A DNA stretch of 13,897 nt from Candidatus Brocadiia bacterium (GTDB lineage Bacteria > Planctomycetota > B143-G9), in assembly GCA_041648755.1 (NCBI GenBank), contig JBAZOJ010000071.1, forward strand, positions 1 to 13,897, in the 5' to 3' direction. The position numbers and the translations under genes are program-made. A model generated the notes under the pieces. The model was not told the DNA's origin, ran no database searches, and worked only from the letters and a program-made list of their open reading frames with translations. This document shows, in pieces, positions 2,339 to 13,897 of the stretch. Every line of letters begins with the position of its first letter. Positions within the stretch are counted from its first letter, which is position 1.

Positions 2339-3163
2339 CTACTTCGCCGAGTTCTCGTATGCCGTGATGAACAGACGGGCGGTAAATACGGCCGCGGCGT
2401 CAATTCGTTCCTGTGCGAACTCGCGGACTTTATCAGACTTGATCACCCCGGAATTTGCTGGAATTTCCGGCTCCAGCGCGAAAACTGTCTCCACGAGCCC
2501 ATGGCTCTTATCAAGCTCTGTGGCTATTTCCATGAGGATGCCATTCCAGGAGTAAGGTTTCAGGCCGTTTACACAAGACCTTGTGGATTGCAGCTTTATG
2601 AGCAGCCAATCGACCCTCGAATGAAGGTCCTTTCCCTTGTGCTCTTCCTTGCCGTCGTAGAACACTGTGGTGTGCAATGGGTTGCAGAGATCCTGTGCGT
2701 AGTGGGCCAGCACGCCAGCGTACACAAGGCACTTTGCCTGGAGTTCCTTGCTGTCGGTTTTGTACCTGTAATTGTTAAAGGCTGTCGCCAGCCTGCCCGT
2801 CCATTCTGCAACCGCGTACGGAAGCATTCCGACATGCTCTGCGACTAAGTCCTTGTCATGGCACATCTTATAGAATGCCCATCGGTCGGTAGGAAGTGGA
2901 GATCTGCTCAGCTTCTCCATGTTGATGAAATGTTCGGGCTCCTCTGTGGAGCCGAGGATCTTGCTGCCATAGCTTCTGAAGGAGTCGGGGTCGTCCGAGG
3001 CCAACACTGCGTAAGCGGCGCCTTTGGCGAAGAACTCGGGCAGTCCCGCGCCCTGTGTGGCAACGGCAGCTTCAGTTATTGTTCGGTGCACAGCATGTGA
3101 CCAGCCGACAAATAGCACCGAAACGGAAACCAGTATCAGCAGTGGCGTTCGCGTGGCACGCAT
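2339..3163 (-). CDS. Secreted S1/P1-family zinc-dependent nuclease (same phospholipase C/P1 nuclease superfamily fold).
   Basis: Mature N-terminus WSHAVHRT corresponds to Trp1/His6 of the P1 nuclease zinc site. LAHYAQDLCNPLHTT matches P1 HFIGDxxQPLH. EHFIN matches LHFID. DLHSRVDWLL matches NLHSDWD. An N-terminal signal peptide is predicted to cleave just before the Trp. The six-frame ORF starts at 3190 (MRYRNTEGAMRATRT...), but the second ATG at 3163 is preceded by GGAGGG (5-nt spacing) and is the preferred start. Confidence 0.6.
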   Translation of the reverse strand: MRATRTPLLILVSVSVLFVGWSHAVHRTITEAAVATQGAGLPEFFAKGAAYAVLASDDPDSFRSYGSKILGSTEEPEHFINMEKLSRSPLPTDRWAFYKMCHDKDLVAEHVGMLPYAVAEWTGRLATAFNNYRYKTDSKELQAKCLVYAGVLAHYAQDLCNPLHTTVFYDGKEEHKGKDLHSRVDWLLIKLQSTRSCVNGLKPYSWNGILMEIATELDKSHGLVETVFALEPEIPANSGVIKSDKVREFAQERIDAAAVFTARLFITAYENSAK

Positions 3164-3951: not shown

Positions 3952-4899
3952 ATGAGAATGCGACTGCATTTTGCGATATTTCTTCCGACGGCCTTCGCGG
4001 CCGTCTTGTTGTTCTGCGGCACTTCATGGGCCGAGACTGCGGCTCCGACCGGCGAAGAGAAGCCGTCGCTGTCACTCTTCCAGGCTGCGGTGTTGGGCGT
4101 GGTCGAGGGCACAACGGAGTACTTGCCCGTGAGTTCCACGGGCCACCTACTGCTTGTCCAGCGCTGGCTGGGCATGTCAGGGGACGAGGAATCCGAATCC
4201 AGGAGCGCGGCTGACGCGTTCGCCATCGTCATCCAGGCTGGCGCGATCCTTGCCGTGTTGGGGCTGTTCCGAAGGCGCTTCAGGGGGATGGCGCTGGGAC
4301 TCGCGGGAAAGGACAAAGACGGCCTGCTGATGCTGCGCAACGTGCTGATTGCTTTCATTCCAGCCGCAGTGCTGGGTTTCCTGCTGGAACACAAGGTCAA
4401 GGAATACCTGTACGGTCCGCTGCCGATAGCGGGCGCGCTCTTCGTTGGCGGAATTGCGATCTTCGCGGCGGCCGCTTGGCGCAGGAACAAGCCGGAGGGG
4501 ATTTCGCTCGAGGAAATGGGCCTGCGGGCGGCCATCATCATCGGGATAGCCCAGAGCATAGCCATCTGCCCGGGAGTATCGCGCTCGCTGGCGACAATCT
4601 TGGGTGGGCTCGCGGCGGGACTCACGCTTGGCGCGGCTGTGGAGTTCAGCTTCCTGCTGGGTTTCGTCACGCTTGCCGCGGCCACGGGCTACGAGACGAT
4701 GAAGGAGGGCTCGCGGATACTCGGCGCCTACGGCTGGATCAGTCCGGTCGTAGGGTTCGTGGTCGCCTTTCTGACCGCAATTGTGGCCGTCAAGTGGATG
4801 GTATCGTACCTGCAATCCCACGGACTGGCCGTATTTGGCGTGTACAGAATCGCGCTTGCCGTGGCGATAGTCACATTAGTGGTGATGGGGCTGCTGTAG
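3952..4899 (+). CDS. uppP: Undecaprenyl-diphosphate phosphatase UppP (BacA), with an approximately 40-aa N-terminal extension.
   Basis: Signature [21 protein letters not shown] (E. coli [20 protein letters not shown]). A second conserved block [13 protein letters not shown] (PGxSRSG motif region). Eight predicted TM segments. The N-terminal extension [39 protein letters not shown] looks like a signal peptide. Confidence 0.8.
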   Translation: [315 protein letters not shown]

Positions 4900-4982: not shown

Positions 4983-6467
4983 TCACTTCTTCTCGGGCTT
5001 GTGCCCTTCCACTTCATGCTTCTCGTGAACAGCCTTGCCGAGGTATTCGGGCAATTGCAGGCCGACCATCTTGGCGATGTCGTGCATTGGGGGCACGGCC
5101 CCGATGAAGCGCTTGCCAAGGTTGGCCATGCCACCCGATTCGCCGCCGCCATCCCAAACGATGACCTTCTCGATCGGAAGATCCTTGATCGCGGTCGCCT
5201 GGATGTGCGCGACTTCAGTAAGCTTTTCGATCATCAGCAGCGAGGTAAGCAACTGCGGGTCGCTTACGCAGGCAGCAACAAGAGCCCTGTAACCGGCGGA
5301 CTTGCCGTCCAGGATGGCCTGGATGCCGCGGCCTTCGGCTTCCATCTTGAGAATGGTGGCTTCTCCGATAGCCTTGGCGTTGATAACCTGGGCATCGGCA
5401 TCGCCTCGCGCGATCAGGACGCGCTTTTCGCGCTCTGCATCGGCCTCGATGACGACCCTGGACTTCTGCGCCTCGGCGGGTACCGTAATTTCGGCGCGGT
5501 AACGGGATGCCTCGCGCAGAGCTCTGGCCTCTTCGGCCTTCTGCTGGGCATTTTCCTGGCTGACACGAATCTGGCCATCCGCTGTAACCTGGGCGGACGA
5601 ACCTTTTCCGCGCGCGCTTTCCTCGGCGACCTTCTGTTCGGCGTGGTAGGTGGCCTTGTTGGCGTTCGCTTCGGTCTCGGTGCGGACGGCTTCGGCGTCC
5701 AGCACGGCGGTTTTCTGGCGGCGGTCCCTGTCGGCTGAGGATTCGCCGATGGAGGCCAGCGAATTCGCGGCGGCTACCGCTACGCGCTGATCCTTCTCAC
5801 GCTCGGCGACGCCGATCTTTCCGCGTCTTTCCTGTTCGGCCACGTCAACGAGTGCCTGGTTGATGGCCTCGGCGGCCGCTTTCCGGCCCAATGCCTGGAT
5901 GTAGCCGCTCTCGTCCTCGATGTCCTTGATGTTGACGTTGATGACCGCGAGGCCGATCTTCTCGAGTTCGGCGGACACAGCCTCGTTCACCTTGTACATG
6001 AACGCCTGGCGGTCGCGGTTGATTTCTTCGATCTTCATCGTCGCGATAACGGCGCGCATCTGGCCAAGGATGATGTCCTGCGCCTGCTTCTGAATGTCGG
6101 TGTAGGTCTGGCCGAGGAGGCGGATGGCCGCGTTCTGCATGATGCCTTCCTCGGTGCTAATGGCGCACGTGACCGTGGTTGGCACGGAGACGCGGATGTT
6201 CTCCTGCGACAGCGCGCTGGACAACTCTATGGGAACGACAAAAGGCTCAAGCTCGAGCCACGCGTACGACTGCATTACGGGCCATACGAAGGCCGCGCCG
6301 CCGTGTACGCATCTTGCGACGCCTCTTCCGGTCTTGCCGTAGATGACCATGATCTTGTTGGACGGGCACCGCTTGTAGCGGTTGATGAAGGTGATGATCA
6401 TCACCAGAACGATGAACACGAGAATCAGAACGAGAATCAGGGTGGTCGGGATTTCGTTTCCGGGCAT
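4983..6467 (-). CDS. Flotillin / SPFH (band-7) domain membrane protein, YqiK-like.
   Basis: 494 aa. N-terminal TM helix, then an SPFH domain (KIMVIYGKTG...FVWPVMQSYAWLELEP...), then a long Ala/Glu/Arg-rich coiled-coil (EA repeats). Start ATG is preceded by GAGGAGGAA. Immediately downstream of an NfeD-family gene, the canonical operon arrangement. Confidence 0.8.
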   Translation of the reverse strand: MPGNEIPTTLILVLILVFIVLVMIITFINRYKRCPSNKIMVIYGKTGRGVARCVHGGAAFVWPVMQSYAWLELEPFVVPIELSSALSQENIRVSVPTTVTCAISTEEGIMQNAAIRLLGQTYTDIQKQAQDIILGQMRAVIATMKIEEINRDRQAFMYKVNEAVSAELEKIGLAVINVNIKDIEDESGYIQALGRKAAAEAINQALVDVAEQERRGKIGVAEREKDQRVAVAAANSLASIGESSADRDRRQKTAVLDAEAVRTETEANANKATYHAEQKVAEESARGKGSSAQVTADGQIRVSQENAQQKAEEARALREASRYRAEITVPAEAQKSRVVIEADAEREKRVLIARGDADAQVINAKAIGEATILKMEAEGRGIQAILDGKSAGYRALVAACVSDPQLLTSLLMIEKLTEVAHIQATAIKDLPIEKVIVWDGGGESGGMANLGKRFIGAVPPMHDIAKMVGLQLPEYLGKAVHEKHEVEGHKPEKK

Positions 6468-6532: not shown

Positions 6533-7129
6533 CTATTTCAGCTTCTCCACCTCGACAGTAGTGGAGTCAACACAGCGGGTCACTCTTATCCTGGCCCCGG
6601 GGGCAAGGCTTTCTCCGCTGACGGAGCGCGCCTTCACAAAACTGATGATCCCGTTCATCGGGACCCGGACTTTTCCCATGCCCTTCTCGGGGATGGTCAT
6701 ATAGACATCGCCTTCCACCCCGACACAGGTAGAGACGTTTGAGTTGCCTGTCTCCTGCAGCTTGGAAATCTGGATGATCAGAACGCCCACGATGATCCCG
6801 CCTCCGAGCCCCCACAACAGGCTGTACGCAATCGCCTGTCCAAAGGGGTAGCCCTGCTGAAGATATAGGGCTCCGGCCCAACTGAACAGAGTACCGAAGG
6901 CGATAACGGATCTGAAAGACAGGAGCCGAAAGACATCGAGTGTGCCGGCATCAACGTGGTCGGCAGCATCGGTTCCTGTAACGTCGTGACCGGCAGTGTC
7001 GATGTCCGCGCCGCCAGAGGTGAGGCCCAAGATCGCGCTGAAGAGTTGCCAGATGAAAAAGACTGAGAAGAACGCAGCAAGGCCGAAGAAAACCTTGTTC
7101 AGCGTGTTCAGTTCATTCCACCATTCCAT
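6533..7129 (-). CDS. NfeD-family membrane protein (YqiJ/YuaF-like), partner of flotillin.
   Basis: N-terminal hydrophobic helices MEWWNELNTLNKVFFGLAAFFSVFFIWQLFSAILGL..., then a C-terminal OB-fold-like soluble domain (GDVYMTIPEKGMGKVRVPMNGIISFVKARS...RIRVTRCVDSTTVEVEKL). Internal ATG at 7129 with GGGAG SD is preferred over the six-frame start at 7264, which would add 45 atypical residues. A 65-bp gap to the flotillin gene implies an operon. Confidence 0.65.
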   Translation of the reverse strand: MEWWNELNTLNKVFFGLAAFFSVFFIWQLFSAILGLTSGGADIDTAGHDVTGTDAADHVDAGTLDVFRLLSFRSVIAFGTLFSWAGALYLQQGYPFGQAIAYSLLWGLGGGIIVGVLIIQISKLQETGNSNVSTCVGVEGDVYMTIPEKGMGKVRVPMNGIISFVKARSVSGESLAPGARIRVTRCVDSTTVEVEKLK

Positions 7130-7289: not shown

Positions 7290-7538
7290 AATCGAGCGGA
7301 CCGAAGAGGACTTGAGCGGTGAAGGCTCCTAAGTTAGCACCTCAGGCTGACAAGGAAGACTTCTGCCGCGGCGATTCTCCGGCCAAAGTTAGTGTTCATT
7401 GGCGGATAATGTCCACCGTAGCTGTCTGCTTCTCAGAACTTCAGGGCCATTCGCGGATGCTCCTGGCGAATAGCAGCGCCTTGTTTGCCGCGGCGACAAA
7501 ACGAGGGATACTGTGCCGTCGAGCACCAGAGAGGAACG

Positions 7539-9158
7539 ATGCCGCAGGAGCAGAAGGGGTCTCCCGAAAAGGCCCCTATCGTGAGGTCCATTTTCTCCTA
7601 CTCGCTGGCGACCTTGCTGTCGCGTATCAGCGGCTTCGTCCGCGAAACCGCCTGGGCTGCGCTTATCGGCCCCACCCAGTTCTCGGATATCTTCCTGTTT
7701 GTCTATACCATACCCAACCTGATGCGCAGGCTTCTTGGCGAAGGCGCGATAGCGTCCGCGTTTGTCCCCCTGTTCAACTCGGTCGAGAAGCAGTCGGGAA
7801 TCGAGGAGGCTCGCAAGCTATCCTCAACCATCTACACGCTTCAGACCATGATAACGACCGCCTTCACGGTCCTGACCATGCTGGTCTGTATCATCATCCG
7901 ATTCACCGCTCCACCCGACTCGACAATTGTCATCTACGCCGAGTACCTTGCTGTGCTTGCCCCATACGCGGTGTTCATCTGCGCCGACGCATTCCTCGCA
8001 TCTCTACTGAATGCCCGACGGATCTACTTCCTGCCGAATATGGTGCAGGTAATCATCAACGTGTTCTGGCTGGGATTGACCTTCGTAGCCGTCTGGGCCT
8101 TCCAGCCAAGATACGGGCTGACGGTACTGGGCGGAGGAGTGGTTGCGGTCTGCGCCTACACGGTCTGGATGCTTGCCGCGCGGGCAAAAAAAGAAGGCGT
8201 TGCTGTCGAGTTTACCCTTCGGCATCTGAAGACCACGCCCGCGCTGCAGGGGTTCTTTGCGCGGTACTGGCTTGTCATCCTGGGCTCGGCTTCGTACACG
8301 ATCAATGTGTTGATTGACCGGCTTTTCGTGCAGTTCCTTGTCCCGGGGGAAGGCGCGATGACAATCTTCTACCAGGGCGAACGGTTGATGCAACTCCCGC
8401 TGGGGGTGCTCGCGGTGTCGGTTGGCACGGTTGCGCTGACGGAACTGAGCAAGTCAGTATTCGAGGAAGACAAGTTCCGCGACAACTTCACGCGGCTGAT
8501 GCGCATAGCCGGATTCCTGGCGATACCCACCACCGTTGTGATGGTCATGCTGGCCGTTCCGCTTGTTGATTTTTCACTGAATTACGGCAAATTCGCAGCG
8601 GCGTCCGCCGATCTGCACGCACTTTCCCGCGCCGCCAACGTGCTCATTTGCTATATGGTCGGCCTTCCAGCGTTCTTCCTGATGCAGGTTCTCACAAAGG
8701 TGTATTTCTCCATCAACGAACTGAAGATCACCGTGCGAGTCTCTACCTGGATGATCGTGTTCAATGTGGTAGCGAACATCGCCGTGCTGAGATACACAAC
8801 GATGGGCGAATCAGGGCTCGCGCTGACCAGTTCGATCGCATCGTGGCTGAGCGTGCTGTTGCTTTCATGGGCTTTGCACCACAGGATGCCCAAACTGGGA
8901 TCGTGGGCGGGAGTGAAATCATTCCTGTCATTCATTCCTGCGGCGGCTATTGCGGGCGTGGGGCTATGGGCATGCCTCCATTTGTTCGACGGGATGACCG
9001 GACGCTCTGTGCTTGACAGGTTCCTGCGGCTCGCGGTGCCCTCATTGGTGTTCTTTGGCATCTACTTTGCTGTTAACGCGGTGTTCAGGGTGCCCGAGGC
9101 GCGGTCGCTGGTCAGAAGATTGTTTCGCAGAAGCGCTTCCCAGCCGCCGTTGAAGTGA
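7539..9158 (+). CDS. murJ: Lipid II flippase MurJ (MviN).
   Basis: N-terminus SIFSYSLATLLSRISGFVRETAWAALIGPTQFSDIFLFVYTIPNLMRRLLGEGAIASAFVPLF matches the MurJ signature (SRxxGFxRE...AFxxxxxIPNLFRRxFAEGAFSxAFVP). About 14 TM segments; 540 aa from ATG at 7539, which has GAGAGGAA upstream. The six-frame track starts at an upstream TTG at 7485. Confidence 0.85.
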   Translation: MPQEQKGSPEKAPIVRSIFSYSLATLLSRISGFVRETAWAALIGPTQFSDIFLFVYTIPNLMRRLLGEGAIASAFVPLFNSVEKQSGIEEARKLSSTIYTLQTMITTAFTVLTMLVCIIIRFTAPPDSTIVIYAEYLAVLAPYAVFICADAFLASLLNARRIYFLPNMVQVIINVFWLGLTFVAVWAFQPRYGLTVLGGGVVAVCAYTVWMLAARAKKEGVAVEFTLRHLKTTPALQGFFARYWLVILGSASYTINVLIDRLFVQFLVPGEGAMTIFYQGERLMQLPLGVLAVSVGTVALTELSKSVFEEDKFRDNFTRLMRIAGFLAIPTTVVMVMLAVPLVDFSLNYGKFAAASADLHALSRAANVLICYMVGLPAFFLMQVLTKVYFSINELKITVRVSTWMIVFNVVANIAVLRYTTMGESGLALTSSIASWLSVLLLSWALHHRMPKLGSWAGVKSFLSFIPAAAIAGVGLWACLHLFDGMTGRSVLDRFLRLAVPSLVFFGIYFAVNAVFRVPEARSLVRRLFRRSASQPPLK

Positions 9159-9240
9159 AATCCGGGCAAATGCCGCTATACTGTTGCGTCTTGTAGCCAT
9201 TCGGACCCAACGGAGAACACTGAGTCTCCCAGGAGGAAAT

Positions 9241-11070
9241 ATGTTGAAGAAATTCGGCCTGCTGGCCATGGCCCTTCTCGCCTTCGCGGCGCTCCCAACG
9301 GTTGCGCCCGTCGCCGACGAGATGCCCTCCGGTTCCATCACGAAGTACCTTCCGGCAAACACGATTTTCGTCGCCGAGTTCAATGACTTCAAGTCATCGT
9401 ATACGCGCGCCCAGGAACTCGGAGTCGTCAAGATGATGAACGATCCCGAGGTCAAGGCCTTCTTCGAGTCGCTGCAGGGAATGAATCCCAATAATGCGCA
9501 GGACATGGAGAAATTCAGCGAACTGATTAAGTTCTTCCAGGAGATCGAGCCATTGGCTGCAGGGCTGTTCAAGGGATATGGTTCCCTGGCAGTTGTAACC
9601 GCCAATCAGAAGGAAAAGAGCGCATATGCCGTTCTGGCAGTTCAGATCGAGCAGGGCAAGGGCGCTGAGGGCGCGGAACTGATCAAGAAGATTCTCGAAA
9701 AGGTCACGCAGCTCAATCCCGACAAGCAGATGGATATCAAGACCGAAACCATTGGCAAGTACGAAGCCACCCGCATCGCTGAAAACGGCGAAAAGCCTGA
9801 CAATGAGGCTGGTTACTACACCTTCACCGACAACTACTTTATCCTTGGTGTCGGCAAGACGTCCCTCGTCACGGCGCTTGAGGCGATGGATGCCCCCCCG
9901 GCCGAGCCCATGTCCGCCAAGCCCGAATTGCTCAAGGCCTATTCGATGCACAAGTCCAAGGAAGGCTTCTTCTTCCTCAACCTCAAGGCCCTGTGCGACC
10001 TTATGACCGAGCAGGCAGAGCCAGAGCGCGTTGAGGACCTGGCCAAGATGAAGGAAGTCGTGCGGTTCGTTCCAGCCATTTCCGGCGGAATGACCTTTGA
10101 CGGCCCCAACTTCGACGAGCAGTTGATCCTTCACTTCGGCGATGTTCCGGAGTTCGCCATGGTCAGGAGCCTCCAGGCCAAGGCTCTGTCCTTCGCAACA
10201 GCTTCGCTGATGCCCAAGGAGCCCATGTTCTACGGTGCGATGTCGATGTCAGCGGCCGAGATCCTGGAAGATCTGCCCAAGATCATTCCGAATGCGGCAC
10301 AAATGGAAGCCGGTTTCGCGATGGTTGAGCAGGCGACCGGCATTTCTGTAAGGGACAAACTGCTTCCCGCCATCGGCGACGAAGTGGGATTCTATGTCAC
10401 TATGGCCGGAATGATGCCTGAGTACCTTGCGGTCGTGACTCTGAACGACCCGGTCATTGTCAGCACAATGCTTGACGGTCTCGTTGCCATCCCCGACGGC
10501 CCTGTAACCGAGGTTGGAACATTCAAGGATCACAAGCTCTTTGCGGCTGGCGCAGGCCAGGGAAATCCCAACGCACCAGTGTTCTGCGTACACCAGAACT
10601 TCCTGCTGGTCGGCGGAATGCTCGCACTCAAGAACACCATCAACCGCAACCCGGAAGCCTCGCTTGCCACGAACGACACGTTCAAGGAAGCCCTTGCCGG
10701 ATTCGGCGACACCAAGCATAACGCGTTTGTGTTCTTCGACACCAAGAAGGCATTCGATGCCGCATACAACTTCGTTCCCATGGTTGCCGGACCCATGGCA
10801 GCCAATCTGCCAGCCAAGGAAGTCTTCACGCAGTACATCACCCCGCAGGCTTTCTCGTTCAAGGTCAACGGAGACCACGCCATCCTGCGCGCCCGTGGTT
10901 TCCTCCCCGGCTCAGTAATTCTGATGGGAGCTGGCGCAGCAATGTTCTTTTCCGCTTCCCGCATGGAACGCCGCCCTCCGCCAGACGGCGACTTCCCCCC
11001 ACCTCCTCCTGGCGACGGTGAAATGCCTGATGATCAGAATCCGCCACCGGATGAGCAGCCCAACAATTAG
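9241..11070 (+). CDS. Exported protein of unknown function, 609 aa (paralog A). Signal peptide, large soluble region, C-terminal TM helix, proline-rich acidic tail.
   Basis: ATG at 9241 is preceded by AGGAGGAAAT. Signal peptide MLKKFGLLAMALLAFAALPTVAPVA | DEMP. C-terminal hydrophobic segment GSVILMGAGAAMFFSAS, then RMERRPPPDGDFPPPPPGDGEMPDDQNPPPDEQPNN. Clear paralogy to the downstream gene (NDPEVKAFFESLQGM vs NDPEVQALFEGLKSM; GGMTFDG vs GGITFDG; LLPAIGDEVGFYVTMAGMMP vs ILPALGDEYCSYFTMQGIMP). The 82-nt gap after murJ has no terminator, so the gene is probably co-transcribed with it. Confidence 0.75.
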   Translation: MLKKFGLLAMALLAFAALPTVAPVADEMPSGSITKYLPANTIFVAEFNDFKSSYTRAQELGVVKMMNDPEVKAFFESLQGMNPNNAQDMEKFSELIKFFQEIEPLAAGLFKGYGSLAVVTANQKEKSAYAVLAVQIEQGKGAEGAELIKKILEKVTQLNPDKQMDIKTETIGKYEATRIAENGEKPDNEAGYYTFTDNYFILGVGKTSLVTALEAMDAPPAEPMSAKPELLKAYSMHKSKEGFFFLNLKALCDLMTEQAEPERVEDLAKMKEVVRFVPAISGGMTFDGPNFDEQLILHFGDVPEFAMVRSLQAKALSFATASLMPKEPMFYGAMSMSAAEILEDLPKIIPNAAQMEAGFAMVEQATGISVRDKLLPAIGDEVGFYVTMAGMMPEYLAVVTLNDPVIVSTMLDGLVAIPDGPVTEVGTFKDHKLFAAGAGQGNPNAPVFCVHQNFLLVGGMLALKNTINRNPEASLATNDTFKEALAGFGDTKHNAFVFFDTKKAFDAAYNFVPMVAGPMAANLPAKEVFTQYITPQAFSFKVNGDHAILRARGFLPGSVILMGAGAAMFFSASRMERRPPPDGDFPPPPPGDGEMPDDQNPPPDEQPNN

Positions 11071-11085
11071 GCCACCTTCGTAACC

Positions 11086-11118
11086 AAAAGGGGCCCGCGA
11101 GTCGGGCCCCTTTTTTTG
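11086..11118 (+). terminator. Strong rho-independent terminator between the two paralogs.
   Basis: AAAAGGGGCCCG CGAGT CGGGCCCC TTTTTTT: 8-bp GC stem, 5-nt loop, 7 T residues, with an A-tract on the 5' side. Confidence 0.75.
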
Positions 11119-11341
11119 TGCGAAACTTGCACACTTGGGTGATTTATGCGCTTTACGTTCCCCGGCAACTCGGAGTGTGCGATCGACAGCTTGTTCGGCA
11201 CAGGTCCAAAACTCGGGATAATGGCCTGCAAAGGCACCAGACCGGGTAATGCGGACGCGATGACCACACGCGAGCCCGGCCGTTGCTTTGGCACAAGGAT
11301 TGATTCTATCTACCGGCCCCATGTGGGCGGGAGGAGTTCCG

Positions 11342-13138
11342 ATGCTACAACGCTCGCTTTCCATGCTGCTTCTGGCGACCTTGTTCACGATAACAATAAT
11401 GGCAACGCCCTACGCCGACGAAATGCCGGGCGAGTCCATGTCCAAGATGGTCTCCGCGGAGGCCGTCTTCTTCCTTGAGCTCAACGACCTTCACAAGTCG
11501 CTTGAGCGCGCGAAGGACCTTTCCATCGTAAAGCTGTTCAACGATCCGGAAGTCCAGGCGCTGTTCGAGGGCTTGAAGAGCATGAAGGAACAGGAAGTGG
11601 ATGACTTCCTGACCAAGTTCCAGGACTATACTACGCGGATTGCCGAGGCATTCAGCGGACGCGCGATGATCTGCATCCCCAGGATCGACATGGAGCAGAA
11701 GCTCATCGAGGTCGTGGCTGCGGCATCGGTTGCACCCGGCAAGGAGGCTGAGGCCAAGGCGTTGTTCGAGTTGCTCATCTCCGCAATGATGAACGACCCC
11801 AAGAACCAGGACAAGATTACCACTGAGGATTTCGGCGGTGTGCAAGTCACCATTATGCGCGCAAAGCCGGAACAGGAAGAAAAGATGAACGTCTGCCTGG
11901 CAATGCACAAGAACCAGGCGATTGTAACGCTGGGCTCGCAGACCATGAAGGACTACCTGGGCTATTTCGAAGTTCCCCCGGCCCGTCCGCTGTTCGATCT
12001 CCCCGCGTTTGCCAAGTTGTACAAGGCTGTCAGTTGCAAGGAAGTCTTCTGGTTCGTGGACGCCAATGCCGCAATCAAGATGTTTGCTCGGATTTTCGAT
12101 TTTGTCCCGGCCGGGAACGCGGAGATCCTCGATGTAGTCAAGGGCTTGATGGACAAGTTCTCCACACTTATCAGCTATGCTGCAGGCGGAATCACTTTCG
12201 ACGGTGAGATGATGAATGACGAGATTGCCGTCCAGTACACCCCCGCCGCGATGCAACTCAAGAGCATCACATCGATGAGGGGCTCCGTGTGCGAACTGAA
12301 GACGGCGAAGTTCGTTCCGGAGAACGCGCTTTACTACACGGCTACCCGCATCAACTGGGTGGATACGTACAGCGATTTCGAGGGCATGCTGCCCGAGTCG
12401 TGGCGCGAGCAGATCAAGAACATCGAGAACTCACTGATGCTGTCGCTTAAGGATGAGATCCTGCCTGCCCTTGGGGATGAGTATTGCAGTTACTTCACCA
12501 TGCAGGGCATCATGCCGAGTTCACTTTACGCAATCGAATTGAAGAACCCGGAAGTAATCGCGAAGGTTCTTGCAGGCCTGAATACGGTTGTCCCGTACCC
12601 GATTCAGGAAGTGGATTTCCGGGAGCATAAGATCTACAAGCTCAGCATGGGCGGTGGAGTTCCCGGGCCATTCGCAGCCACGACCATCTGGGGCTTTGCC
12701 ATCCACGACGGGTATCTGCTGGCGGGATACTTCAACACGGTCCAGGCTGTCATTTCGCACACCGGCAAGGACATTACGGCTAATCCGGAGTACCAGAAGG
12801 CACTGCTGGCCACTCCGCCGAAGACCGGGTTCATTTTCCTGGATGTGAAGAACCTGTTCGGGTGGATATATGACACCGTCCTGCCGTTCCTTCAGCCGAT
12901 GCTGGCCCAGAACCCCAACTTCGATCCCGCACTTCTGCCCAGCAGGGATGCAATACTCGGTTACTTGCAGCCAATGTCGGCAAATACTGAGCTGGTCGAC
13001 GATATGGCAATGGTCAGAATCAAATCGCCCGTCGCGATGTCACCCGTACTCGGCGTTATTTTCATCGCCATCAGCGCCGTGATGTTCGCAGCACCTGACA
13101 ACAGGGGCAACAACGGTGGTGACGAGGGCGTTTTTTAG
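11342..13138 (+). CDS. Exported protein of unknown function, 598 aa (paralog B of the upstream gene). Signal peptide and C-terminal membrane anchor.
   Basis: ATG at 11342 is preceded by GGGAGGAG. Signal peptide MLQRSLSMLLLATLFTITIMATPYA | DEMP. C-terminal hydrophobic helix VLGVIFIAISAVMFAAP, then a short Gly/Asn tail. About 25-30% identity to paralog A along the full length. Has its own upstream region (220 nt after a terminator). Confidence 0.75.
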   Translation: MLQRSLSMLLLATLFTITIMATPYADEMPGESMSKMVSAEAVFFLELNDLHKSLERAKDLSIVKLFNDPEVQALFEGLKSMKEQEVDDFLTKFQDYTTRIAEAFSGRAMICIPRIDMEQKLIEVVAAASVAPGKEAEAKALFELLISAMMNDPKNQDKITTEDFGGVQVTIMRAKPEQEEKMNVCLAMHKNQAIVTLGSQTMKDYLGYFEVPPARPLFDLPAFAKLYKAVSCKEVFWFVDANAAIKMFARIFDFVPAGNAEILDVVKGLMDKFSTLISYAAGGITFDGEMMNDEIAVQYTPAAMQLKSITSMRGSVCELKTAKFVPENALYYTATRINWVDTYSDFEGMLPESWREQIKNIENSLMLSLKDEILPALGDEYCSYFTMQGIMPSSLYAIELKNPEVIAKVLAGLNTVVPYPIQEVDFREHKIYKLSMGGGVPGPFAATTIWGFAIHDGYLLAGYFNTVQAVISHTGKDITANPEYQKALLATPPKTGFIFLDVKNLFGWIYDTVLPFLQPMLAQNPNFDPALLPSRDAILGYLQPMSANTELVDDMAMVRIKSPVAMSPVLGVIFIAISAVMFAAPDNRGNNGGDEGVF

Positions 13139-13166: not shown

Positions 13167-13170
13167 GTAA

Positions 13171-13199
13171 CCCGCCCCGCAATGGGGCGGGTTTTGTTT
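13171..13199 (+). terminator. Intrinsic terminator for paralog B.
   Basis: CCCGCCCC GCAAT GGGGCGGG, then TTTTGTTT. Confidence 0.7.
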
Positions 13200-13241
13200 G
13201 GAGGGAGCGGGCGAGGACCCTCGCGTGTGGCAAAGATGCCA

Positions 13242-13349: not shown

Positions 13350-13897
<548 letters not shown>

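Follow-up and report, generated by a model that had tools for sequence, protein, structure and literature searches.

A murJ-linked tandem pair of divergent DUF3352-family paralogs in a Planctomycetota genome: predicted exported envelope proteins built from a duplicated TP0453-like module

Two adjacent genes, here termed A and B, were analyzed in a 13,897-nucleotide (nt) stretch of DNA from a metagenome-assembled genome (MAG) of 'Candidatus Brocadiia bacterium' (Planctomycetota). The whole of this stretch, referred to below as the window, comes from a contig of 22.8 kb. A model that had been given the letters alone (the sequence-only reading) flagged positions 9241-13138 as an envelope system of two paralogs downstream of murJ. 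This region was occupied by two open reading frames on one strand, and the products of both are identical to proteins recorded at NCBI for the MAG. The features of the locus are given in window coordinates; signal peptides, lobes, helices and terminators are predictions.

7539..9158, + strand: murJ (lipid II flippase), upstream of A and in the same orientation (Pfam MurJ, E 7.7e-65)
9241..11070, + strand: gene A, WC712_06555, 609 amino acids (aa), predicted exported DUF3352-family protein (open reading frame and translation)
9241..9327, + strand: signal peptide of A (residues 1-25) and ADEMP (25-29); Kyte-Doolittle 19-mer peak 2.15, residues 4-26
9328..10140, + strand: N-terminal lobe of A (residues ~30-300), module copy 1, alpha/beta/alpha (hhalign, AlphaFold2 (AF2))
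10192..10908, + strand: C-terminal lobe of A (residues ~318-556), module copy 2 (hhalign, position of the Pfam match)
10909..11067, + strand: C-terminal hydrophobic helix of A (557-576), then RMERR and a Pro/Asp/Glu-rich tail (577-609) (hydrophobicity, AF2 model)
11086..11117, + strand: terminator-like hairpin (GGGGCCCG..CGGGCCCC) with a T-run, between A and B (RNA fold)
11342..13138, + strand: gene B, WC712_06560, 598 aa, paralog of A, 'B-type' orthologous group (BLASTP, Shine-Dalgarno site)
11342..11428, + strand: signal peptide of B (residues 1-25) and ADEMP (25-29); Kyte-Doolittle 19-mer peak 1.69 (also from the family alignment)
11429..13036, + strand: two-lobed DUF3352-like body of B (N lobe ~30-300, C lobe ~318-565), collinear with A; duplication taken from the family alignment
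13028..13135, + strand: C-terminal hydrophobic helix of B (residues ~563-585) and a 13-residue tail ending DEGVF-COOH; Kyte-Doolittle 19-mer peak 2.38
13169..13203, + strand: second terminator-like hairpin, 3' of B and before the convergent pheS (11-bp stem with 8 G-C pairs, T-rich tail; also called as 13169-13193)
13350-13835, - strand: pheS fragment, convergent with gene B

The murJ gene is a true equivalog (NCBIfam TIGR01695, 264.5 bits against a cutoff of 235.55); its start at 7539 was taken from the gene call, the frame being open from a TTG at 7485. It ends 82 nt before gene A and, as the sequence-only reading had noted, the gap contains no terminator-like site. The first copy, A, is probably co-transcribed with murJ. 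Shine-Dalgarno sites were found 4 bases 5' of the ATG of gene A (AGGAGG, 9231-9236) and 6 bases 5' of that of gene B (GGAGGA, 11330-11335). The GC-rich hairpin between the two genes folds with -28.3 kcal/mol (z -3.61) and none of 200 shuffled sequences folded equally well. The strong terminator that had been placed before B was thus recovered, whereas its upstream region, given earlier as 220 nt, measures 271 nt from the end of A. Promoter-like sites 5' of A and B scored no better than chance level and were not used.

Alignment of A and B by BLASTP gave 26% identity over ~590 residues (E 4e-62), collinear from end to end with no large indels, in agreement with the earlier estimate of 25-30% for two adjacent, divergent paralogs. 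All of the conserved blocks quoted for the pair, NDPEV(K/Q)A(F/L)FE(S/G)L, GG(M/I)TFDG and (L/I)LPA(I/L)GDE..(Y/F)(V/F)TM(A/Q)G(M/I)MP, are present in this alignment. The N-termini of both proteins are of Sec type: a basic n-region precedes the hydrophobic core, after which comes ..A-DEMP. Both proteins end in a hydrophobic segment. The shared exported architecture and the old duplication read from the sequence hold up. A common mature N-terminus of A and B is plausible. The proposed A|D cleavage site has Pro at -3 in both, and canonical signal-peptidase sites lie a few residues upstream of it, AFA|A in A and IMA|T in B. In A the C-terminal segment (residues ~553-576) reaches a Kyte-Doolittle 19-mer peak of 1.65, and RMERR is followed by 28 more Pro/acidic residues, a tail modeled at low confidence. 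The basic residues directly past the helix would fit an anchor with its N-terminal side out and its C-terminal side in, RMERR being on the positive inside.

Two other ways of holding the proteins at the envelope were considered and rejected. Cysteines occur at positions 252 and 449 in A and at 111, 185, 232, 317 and 382 in B, so that neither has a lipobox Cys or any Cys near the N-terminus, and a lipoprotein reading was discarded. Neither protein matched an NCBIfam sorting domain, and a PEP-CTERM, GlyGly-CTERM or sortase-type signal was likewise set aside; the layout of such signals is not reproduced, in that A has the helix and RMERR but continues for a 28-residue tail, and the B-type proteins have acidic tails with [VIL]F as the last residues.

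Searches of Pfam placed A in DUF3352 (PF11832) at 29.4 bits (E 4e-7), above the gathering cutoff of 26.8 bits. No Pfam match to B was obtained at E<=1, DUF3352 included, and neither A nor B matched anything in NCBIfam. B is tied to DUF3352 by its full-length homology to A and by its clustering with relatives P0003 and P0004, both above the cutoff; several close relatives, like B, score below it. An exhaustive HMMER search with a profile of A and B, from which the signal peptide and C-terminal helix had been removed, returned 592 relatives at E<=1e-3, counted as cluster representatives at 50% identity; 117 of these reached E<=1e-10, and 14 reached E<=1e-30. DUF3352 was matched by 48 of 71 relatives (E<=0.01, best 3.1e-23) and no rival family spans the body, while DUF4836 was matched by two of the 71 (best E 7.5e-5). 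Word-indexed homolog searches with A, B or an 11-sequence alignment returned essentially the queries alone, and pattern-based locus scans of genome and metagenome contig collections confirmed no relatives. The named close relatives all come from Planctomycetota MAGs. At their C-termini relatives are fused to AhpC/thioredoxin, TPR, PDZ, T2SS-G (type II secretion system G) or DUF1559 (H-X9-DG) pseudopilin-like domains; because these are typical of extracytoplasmic proteins and signal peptides are present, the family is predicted to lie outside the cytoplasm. On sequence grounds A and B are a divergent planctomycetal branch of the catalogued, unstudied DUF3352, and we hold this assignment of identity and architecture with high confidence. 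The earlier description of an uncharacterised system stands as far as function is concerned, which is undocumented, but not as regards an unrecognised family.

The Pfam match of A covers residues 376-504 and falls on profile positions 98-236 of 536, that is, on the N-terminal half of the profile. As these residues belong to the second half of A, this was a hint of an internal repeat. When the family alignment was split and its N half (30-300) compared with its C half (318-556), hhalign gave a probability of 99.4% (E 4e-21). In A and B alike the body of ~530 aa consists of an internally duplicated alpha/beta/alpha module of ~250 aa. AF2 models were made for the gene A product only. With a 75-sequence alignment the predicted local distance difference test score (pLDDT) was 89.7 and the predicted template modeling score (pTM) 0.85, as compared to a pLDDT of 38 with a two-sequence alignment. 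In the model the order of strands and helices occurs twice and is followed by the C-terminal helix at 557-576; residues 18-25 have a pLDDT below 50, and ADEMP lies in a flexible, low-confidence leader before the first structured element.

Superposition of the AF2-derived module on solved structures gave a single significant neighbor, the Treponema pallidum lipoprotein TP0453. According to the review PMC5421087, TP0453 has an alpha/beta/alpha fold whose integration into membranes needs its amphipathic helices, and a role as lipid or glycolipid carrier in outer-membrane biogenesis is proposed. The structural neighbors of the module are non-enzymatic binding proteins. Leu and Pro are the only near-invariant residues across the family; in the close subfamily such positions are mostly taken by Gly, Pro, Leu, Phe and Ala. 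No polar residue is conserved family-wide, and no enzyme family was matched by A or B in Pfam, NCBIfam or PDB sequences. These two results underlie the non-catalytic reading of the proteins and agree with the absence of a recognizable catalytic motif stated at the outset. That A and B are enzymes acting on envelope polymers, such as hydrolases or transferases whose active site escaped recognition, is accordingly very improbable, the location beside cell-wall genes being all that speaks for them against the conservation pattern, the lack of enzyme-family matches and the non-enzymatic structural neighbors.

The gene order around family members was then compared between genomes, with the following result.

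GCA_964571525.1: murJ followed by three paralogs (584, 591 and 587 aa), with inter-paralog gaps of 119-145 nt that contain no terminators
GCA_053940725.1: murJ, then paralogs of 579 and 595 aa; pheS upstream in a divergent operon
GCA_034521065.1: a pair of 580 and 583 aa after an archaeal-type gatD, not murJ; the first member is a distant homolog
ERZ21831104 (relative P0004): a lone B-type gene between nrdDG and the gene of a 1171-aa exported protein
P0026 and P0043, distant anchored members: do not adjoin murJ

In three genomes (the window, GCA_964571525.1 and GCA_053940725.1) murJ is followed by two or three copies, with gaps of 82-131 nt between murJ and the first of them, and the pair and its murJ linkage noticed in the window thus recur in related genomes. 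Adjacency to murJ in the same orientation was seen in three of the five close-relative contexts that were long enough to judge, and in the contexts compared the murJ linkage appears confined to a narrow clade. The 579/595-aa pair of GCA_053940725.1, a first-position and a B-type protein, was found again, with >90% identity, in its own lineage, where at least five assemblies carry it. The three MurJ proteins of the linked genomes are 40-49% identical and the close DUF3352 relatives share only ~20-32% identity. Because the genes upstream of murJ are completely different in all three genomes and MurJ itself is only 40-49% identical, retention of the array behind murJ is unlikely to be mere inertia. 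The arrangement suggests a functional tie of the copies to lipid II export or to peptidoglycan or envelope assembly in this clade.

Two observations concern flippase genes elsewhere. The relative P0009 (611 aa; L011 1313-4665, on a short contig) is divergent from an adjoining gene for a MatE transporter, which belongs to the MOP flippase superfamily, as does MurJ. In Planctopirus limnophila, entries in the supplement of PMC10632474 give murJ as dispensable under laboratory conditions and the adjoining hypothetical gene Plim_0196 (Plim_0195/Plim_0196 locus) as essential and poorly conserved. Plim_0196 was considered as a DUF3352 homolog and is probably not one, as the insertion-index arithmetic from these entries implies a protein of 211 or 846 aa.

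The explanation that we favor, tentatively and at somewhat under an even chance when taken as a whole, is that A and B are exported, non-enzymatic DUF3352 envelope proteins that are TP0453-like and tied to murJ. Homology, family membership, internal duplication, fold resemblance and synteny are directly supported; we infer the export topology, the binding of ligand or membrane, the coupling to MurJ and non-redundant roles for the first-position and B-type copies. Both proteins would be exported via their Sec signal peptides, after which the C-terminal helix would probably keep the two-lobe body tethered to the cytoplasmic membrane on its periplasmic (outer) side. There A and B would most likely serve the cell envelope without enzymatic activity, as binding proteins, carriers or scaffolds. 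If TP0453 is a guide, they may engage membranes or amphipathic lipid-linked molecules between the beta-sheet and the amphipathic helices, and in this clade they would work in the same process as MurJ. The functional part of this explanation, judged by itself, is possible but doubtful.

Several points weigh against it. The likeness to TP0453 is at the level of the fold only, with 8-10% identity in structural alignments; profile searches of PDB sequences with the family alignments gave no meaningful match, and TP0453 was absent from them even at E<=10. The carrier role of TP0453 is no more than proposed. The ligand, the membrane binding and the interactions of A and B are predictions. Linkage to murJ is absent for P0004, for the pair of GCA_034521065.1 and for the distant anchored members P0026 and P0043. 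A strong terminator parts A from B in the window, and the family readily duplicates in tandem, so that adjacency of paralogs has little functional weight. Finally, the C-terminal helix of the B-type orthologs is weakly hydrophobic (Kyte-Doolittle 1.3-1.55) and their tails are acidic. The membrane anchor read from the sequence is plausible for A, on account of RMERR, and for B, with its peak of 2.38, but it is not a robust feature of the family and is not secure across the clade.

A more specific version of this explanation, compatible with it, was contained in the sequence-only reading: an obligate A:B heterodimer forming a two-component periplasmic machine with complementary roles. First-position and B-type genes are adjacent in the window, in GCA_964571525.1 and in GCA_053940725.1, and a pair also exists in GCA_034521065.1, though its first member is a distant homolog. 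The first-position proteins of GCA_964571525.1 and GCA_053940725.1 cluster together with 100% bootstrap, and the two kinds of protein differ at the C-terminus. Each of the six full-length B-type proteins seen has [DE/G][VIL]F as its C-terminus (window positions 13124-13135 in B), whereas the tails of the first-position proteins are Pro/Glu-rich. B scores 240-308 bits against P0003, P0004, P0005, P0007 and P0008, compared to 201-204 bits against A. The A of the window, however, falls just outside the B clade with weak support, nearer to that clade than to the first-position proteins of other genomes; the A/B split appears old from these comparisons, yet the 'A-type' does not form a single clean group of orthologs. 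Three copies occur in one genome and a lone B-type gene in another, the terminator and 271 nt lie between A and B in the window, and the interaction of A and B is hypothetical. An obligate heterodimer is on these grounds unlikely, and a two-component machine does not follow from the pairing alone, tandem arrays being a general habit of the family.

This habit is also seen within the MAG itself. On contig k141_2202557 (L012 1-12408) at least five paralogs of 593-730 aa, more distant from A and B, stand in a tandem array. Their signal peptides are nearly identical and are followed by ADEPP, then by a body like that of DUF3352 and, at the C-terminus, by a pilin-like domain. A gene of 600 aa in this array keeps the signal peptide and ADEP, lacks the DUF3352 body and is joined straight to pilin-like domains. 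A 112-aa fragment in the array resembles a severed C-terminal domain. Such arrays, the varied fusion partners, the identity of close relatives of ~20-32% as against 40-49% for the adjoining MurJ and the loss of synteny beyond a narrow clade would all suit proteins of the periplasm or cell surface that evolve fast, are rich in paralogs and have a generic role in structure or stress, and whose position after murJ is an inherited order without coupling. The three murJ-linked genomes keep the short-gap array in an otherwise scrambled gene order, which makes pure inertia unlikely, and we consider this account improbable on balance.

The motif that follows the signal peptide was examined across the family as well. 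Of the 21 best matches, 15 carry ADE[LIMP]P behind the signal peptide, which upholds the conservation claimed for DEMP. Other proteins exported in these genomes commonly have acidic residues at +1 and +2 after the signal peptide as well, and ADExP may in part reflect a general signal-peptide context, with Pro at +4 and -3 being family-specific. The special sorting role proposed for the motif is possible but not required.

Alternatively, A and B could serve as accessory or scaffold proteins of a pseudopilin machinery (type II secretion or type IV pilus-like), with the murJ neighborhood incidental. Positions 572-620 of the family alignment profile, the C-terminal helix, weakly match alpha1 of type IV pilins, with E 0.003 for geopilin, 0.043 for PilA and 0.8 for GspG. 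Many DUF3352 relatives are C-terminally fused to T2SS-G or DUF1559, the paralogs of the same MAG have a pilin-like 'AAIAIPN..AR' helix and domain, and two distant members have a T2SSG gene and a secretin gene in their neighborhood. The alpha1 matches are marginal, however, and are due to the relatives fused to pseudopilin-like domains without a prepilin leader. A and B themselves have Sec-type N-termini, no prepilin leader, no pilin-like domain and no T2SSG, N_methyl or DUF1559 match, and were rejected as a type IV pilin or type II secretion pseudopilin. Pseudopilin-like genes are very abundant in Planctomycetota, by which proximity to them has little weight, and the conserved position after murJ is left unexplained. 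A pseudopilin accessory is thus distinctly unlikely. A pilin-like helix in this place is topologically odd, coming after a Sec-exported 550-aa domain.

The favored explanation of murJ-tied envelope proteins can also be narrowed to a much bolder form, in which the murJ-linked pair would be the dedicated periplasmic partner of the flippase. Here a tethered double TP0453-like module would receive or chaperone flipped lipid II or another undecaprenyl-linked precursor, with first-position and B-type copies as a hetero-complex and ADExP and [DE][VIL]F as docking signals, the latter perhaps read by a DegS-type PDZ. We regard this form as quite improbable. A DegS/DegP-type PDZ, which reads C-terminal hydrophobic motifs, as partner of the B-type [VIL]F end is speculative. 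In two genomes (L003 and L010) a conserved set of genes comes after the B-type gene. It codes for a 1171/1197-aa exported protein, for a (FHA-)Ser/Thr kinase and an HD protein, and for a second exported protein, of ~400 aa, in which a DegS/DegP-type PDZ is the only recognizable domain.

Upstream of murJ the window contains further genes, and a link of the pair to UppP and flotillin/NfeD had been suggested from their proximity.

45-971, + strand: gatD, C-terminal part in the window (full gene L001 295-1731)
1025-1762, - strand: RIO1-type protein kinase (Pfam RIO1, E 5.5e-37)
2339-3163, - strand: 274-aa hypothetical protein with a signal-peptide-like N-terminus
3952-4899, + strand: UppP/BacA
4983-6467, - strand: flotillin-like Band_7 protein
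6533-7129, - strand: 198-aa protein with a faint NfeD C-terminal match (E 0.1)

The UppP, flotillin and NfeD genes are not conserved beside murJ in related genomes, which carry different genes there, and the functional link was rejected for this reason. The gatD gene, called 'asparaginase', is the archaeal-type GatD equivalog, with 488 bits to NF003217, for which the cutoff is 310, and 480 bits to TIGR02153. GatDE, a Glu-tRNA(Gln) amidotransferase, is normally archaeal. A GatD-like gene, split in two open reading frames, lies directly upstream of the DUF3352 pair in GCA_034521065.1 (L010 6375-7642). For the RIO1-type kinase the nearest NCBIfam model was the PA4780-family RIO1-like kinase at 180 bits, below the cutoff of 350. 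The 274-aa protein gave a sole, sub-threshold match to zinc-dependent phospholipase C (E 0.0019, 18.6 against 26.8 bits).

The locus bears on a widespread exported family (592 representative clusters at 50% identity) for which no function, solved structure or literature was found; DUF3352, PF11832 and DUF4836 went without mention in the literature searched. New here are the internal duplication of a ~250-aa module and the occurrence of murJ with two or three tandem copies in two further Planctomycetota genomes. DUF3352 is thereby given three handles, namely the two-lobe duplication, the fold link to TP0453 and the post-murJ position in one clade, to which the terminal motifs ADExP and [DE][VIL]F add further value. 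The system is less novel than first held, because it belongs to a catalogued family that is expanded in paralog arrays, but it still yields a testable hypothesis. A and B are divergent members of that family from an uncultured organism, their function drawn from fold and neighborhood only. Peptidoglycan and envelope biology of planctomycetes is unusual, murJ being listed as dispensable in the P. limnophila supplement, and a murJ-tied accessory envelope factor is worth testing. If the lipid II partner form were true, it would provide the first function for DUF3352 and a new accessory step in the handling of cell-wall precursors in the Planctomycetes-Verrucomicrobia-Chlamydiae (PVC) group.

Compared with known systems, A and B resemble Pfam DUF3352 (bacterial, uncharacterised, ~540-575 aa) in length and in their two-lobed exported body. 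The subfamily differs from DUF3352 generally in ADExP after the signal peptide, in the C-terminal hydrophobic helix with Pro/acidic tails, in the [DE][VIL]F end of the B-type proteins and in the murJ-linked tandem arrays. A and B do not match Pfam DUF4836, and the matches of two relatives to it suggest a related uncharacterised family. Membership among DcrB and the LolA/RseB/LprG-like periplasmic lipid-binding proteins was not accepted, the scores being in the gray zone, the aligned regions short and sequence similarity absent. TP0453 (30kLP; PDB 3k8g-3k8j) shares with A and B the ~250-aa alpha/beta/alpha module, which is about as large as one lobe of either protein. It is extracytoplasmic, membrane-associated and non-enzymatic (PMC5421087, PMC7521688), as is predicted for A and B. 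A and B are best described as having 'TP0453-like modules', a likeness that need not mean common ancestry; this label, as opposed to membership in the TP0453 family, was chosen because lipoprotein anchoring and sequence homology are lacking. Where TP0453 is a lipoprotein, A and B have no lipobox Cys and instead carry two modules and a C-terminal helix.

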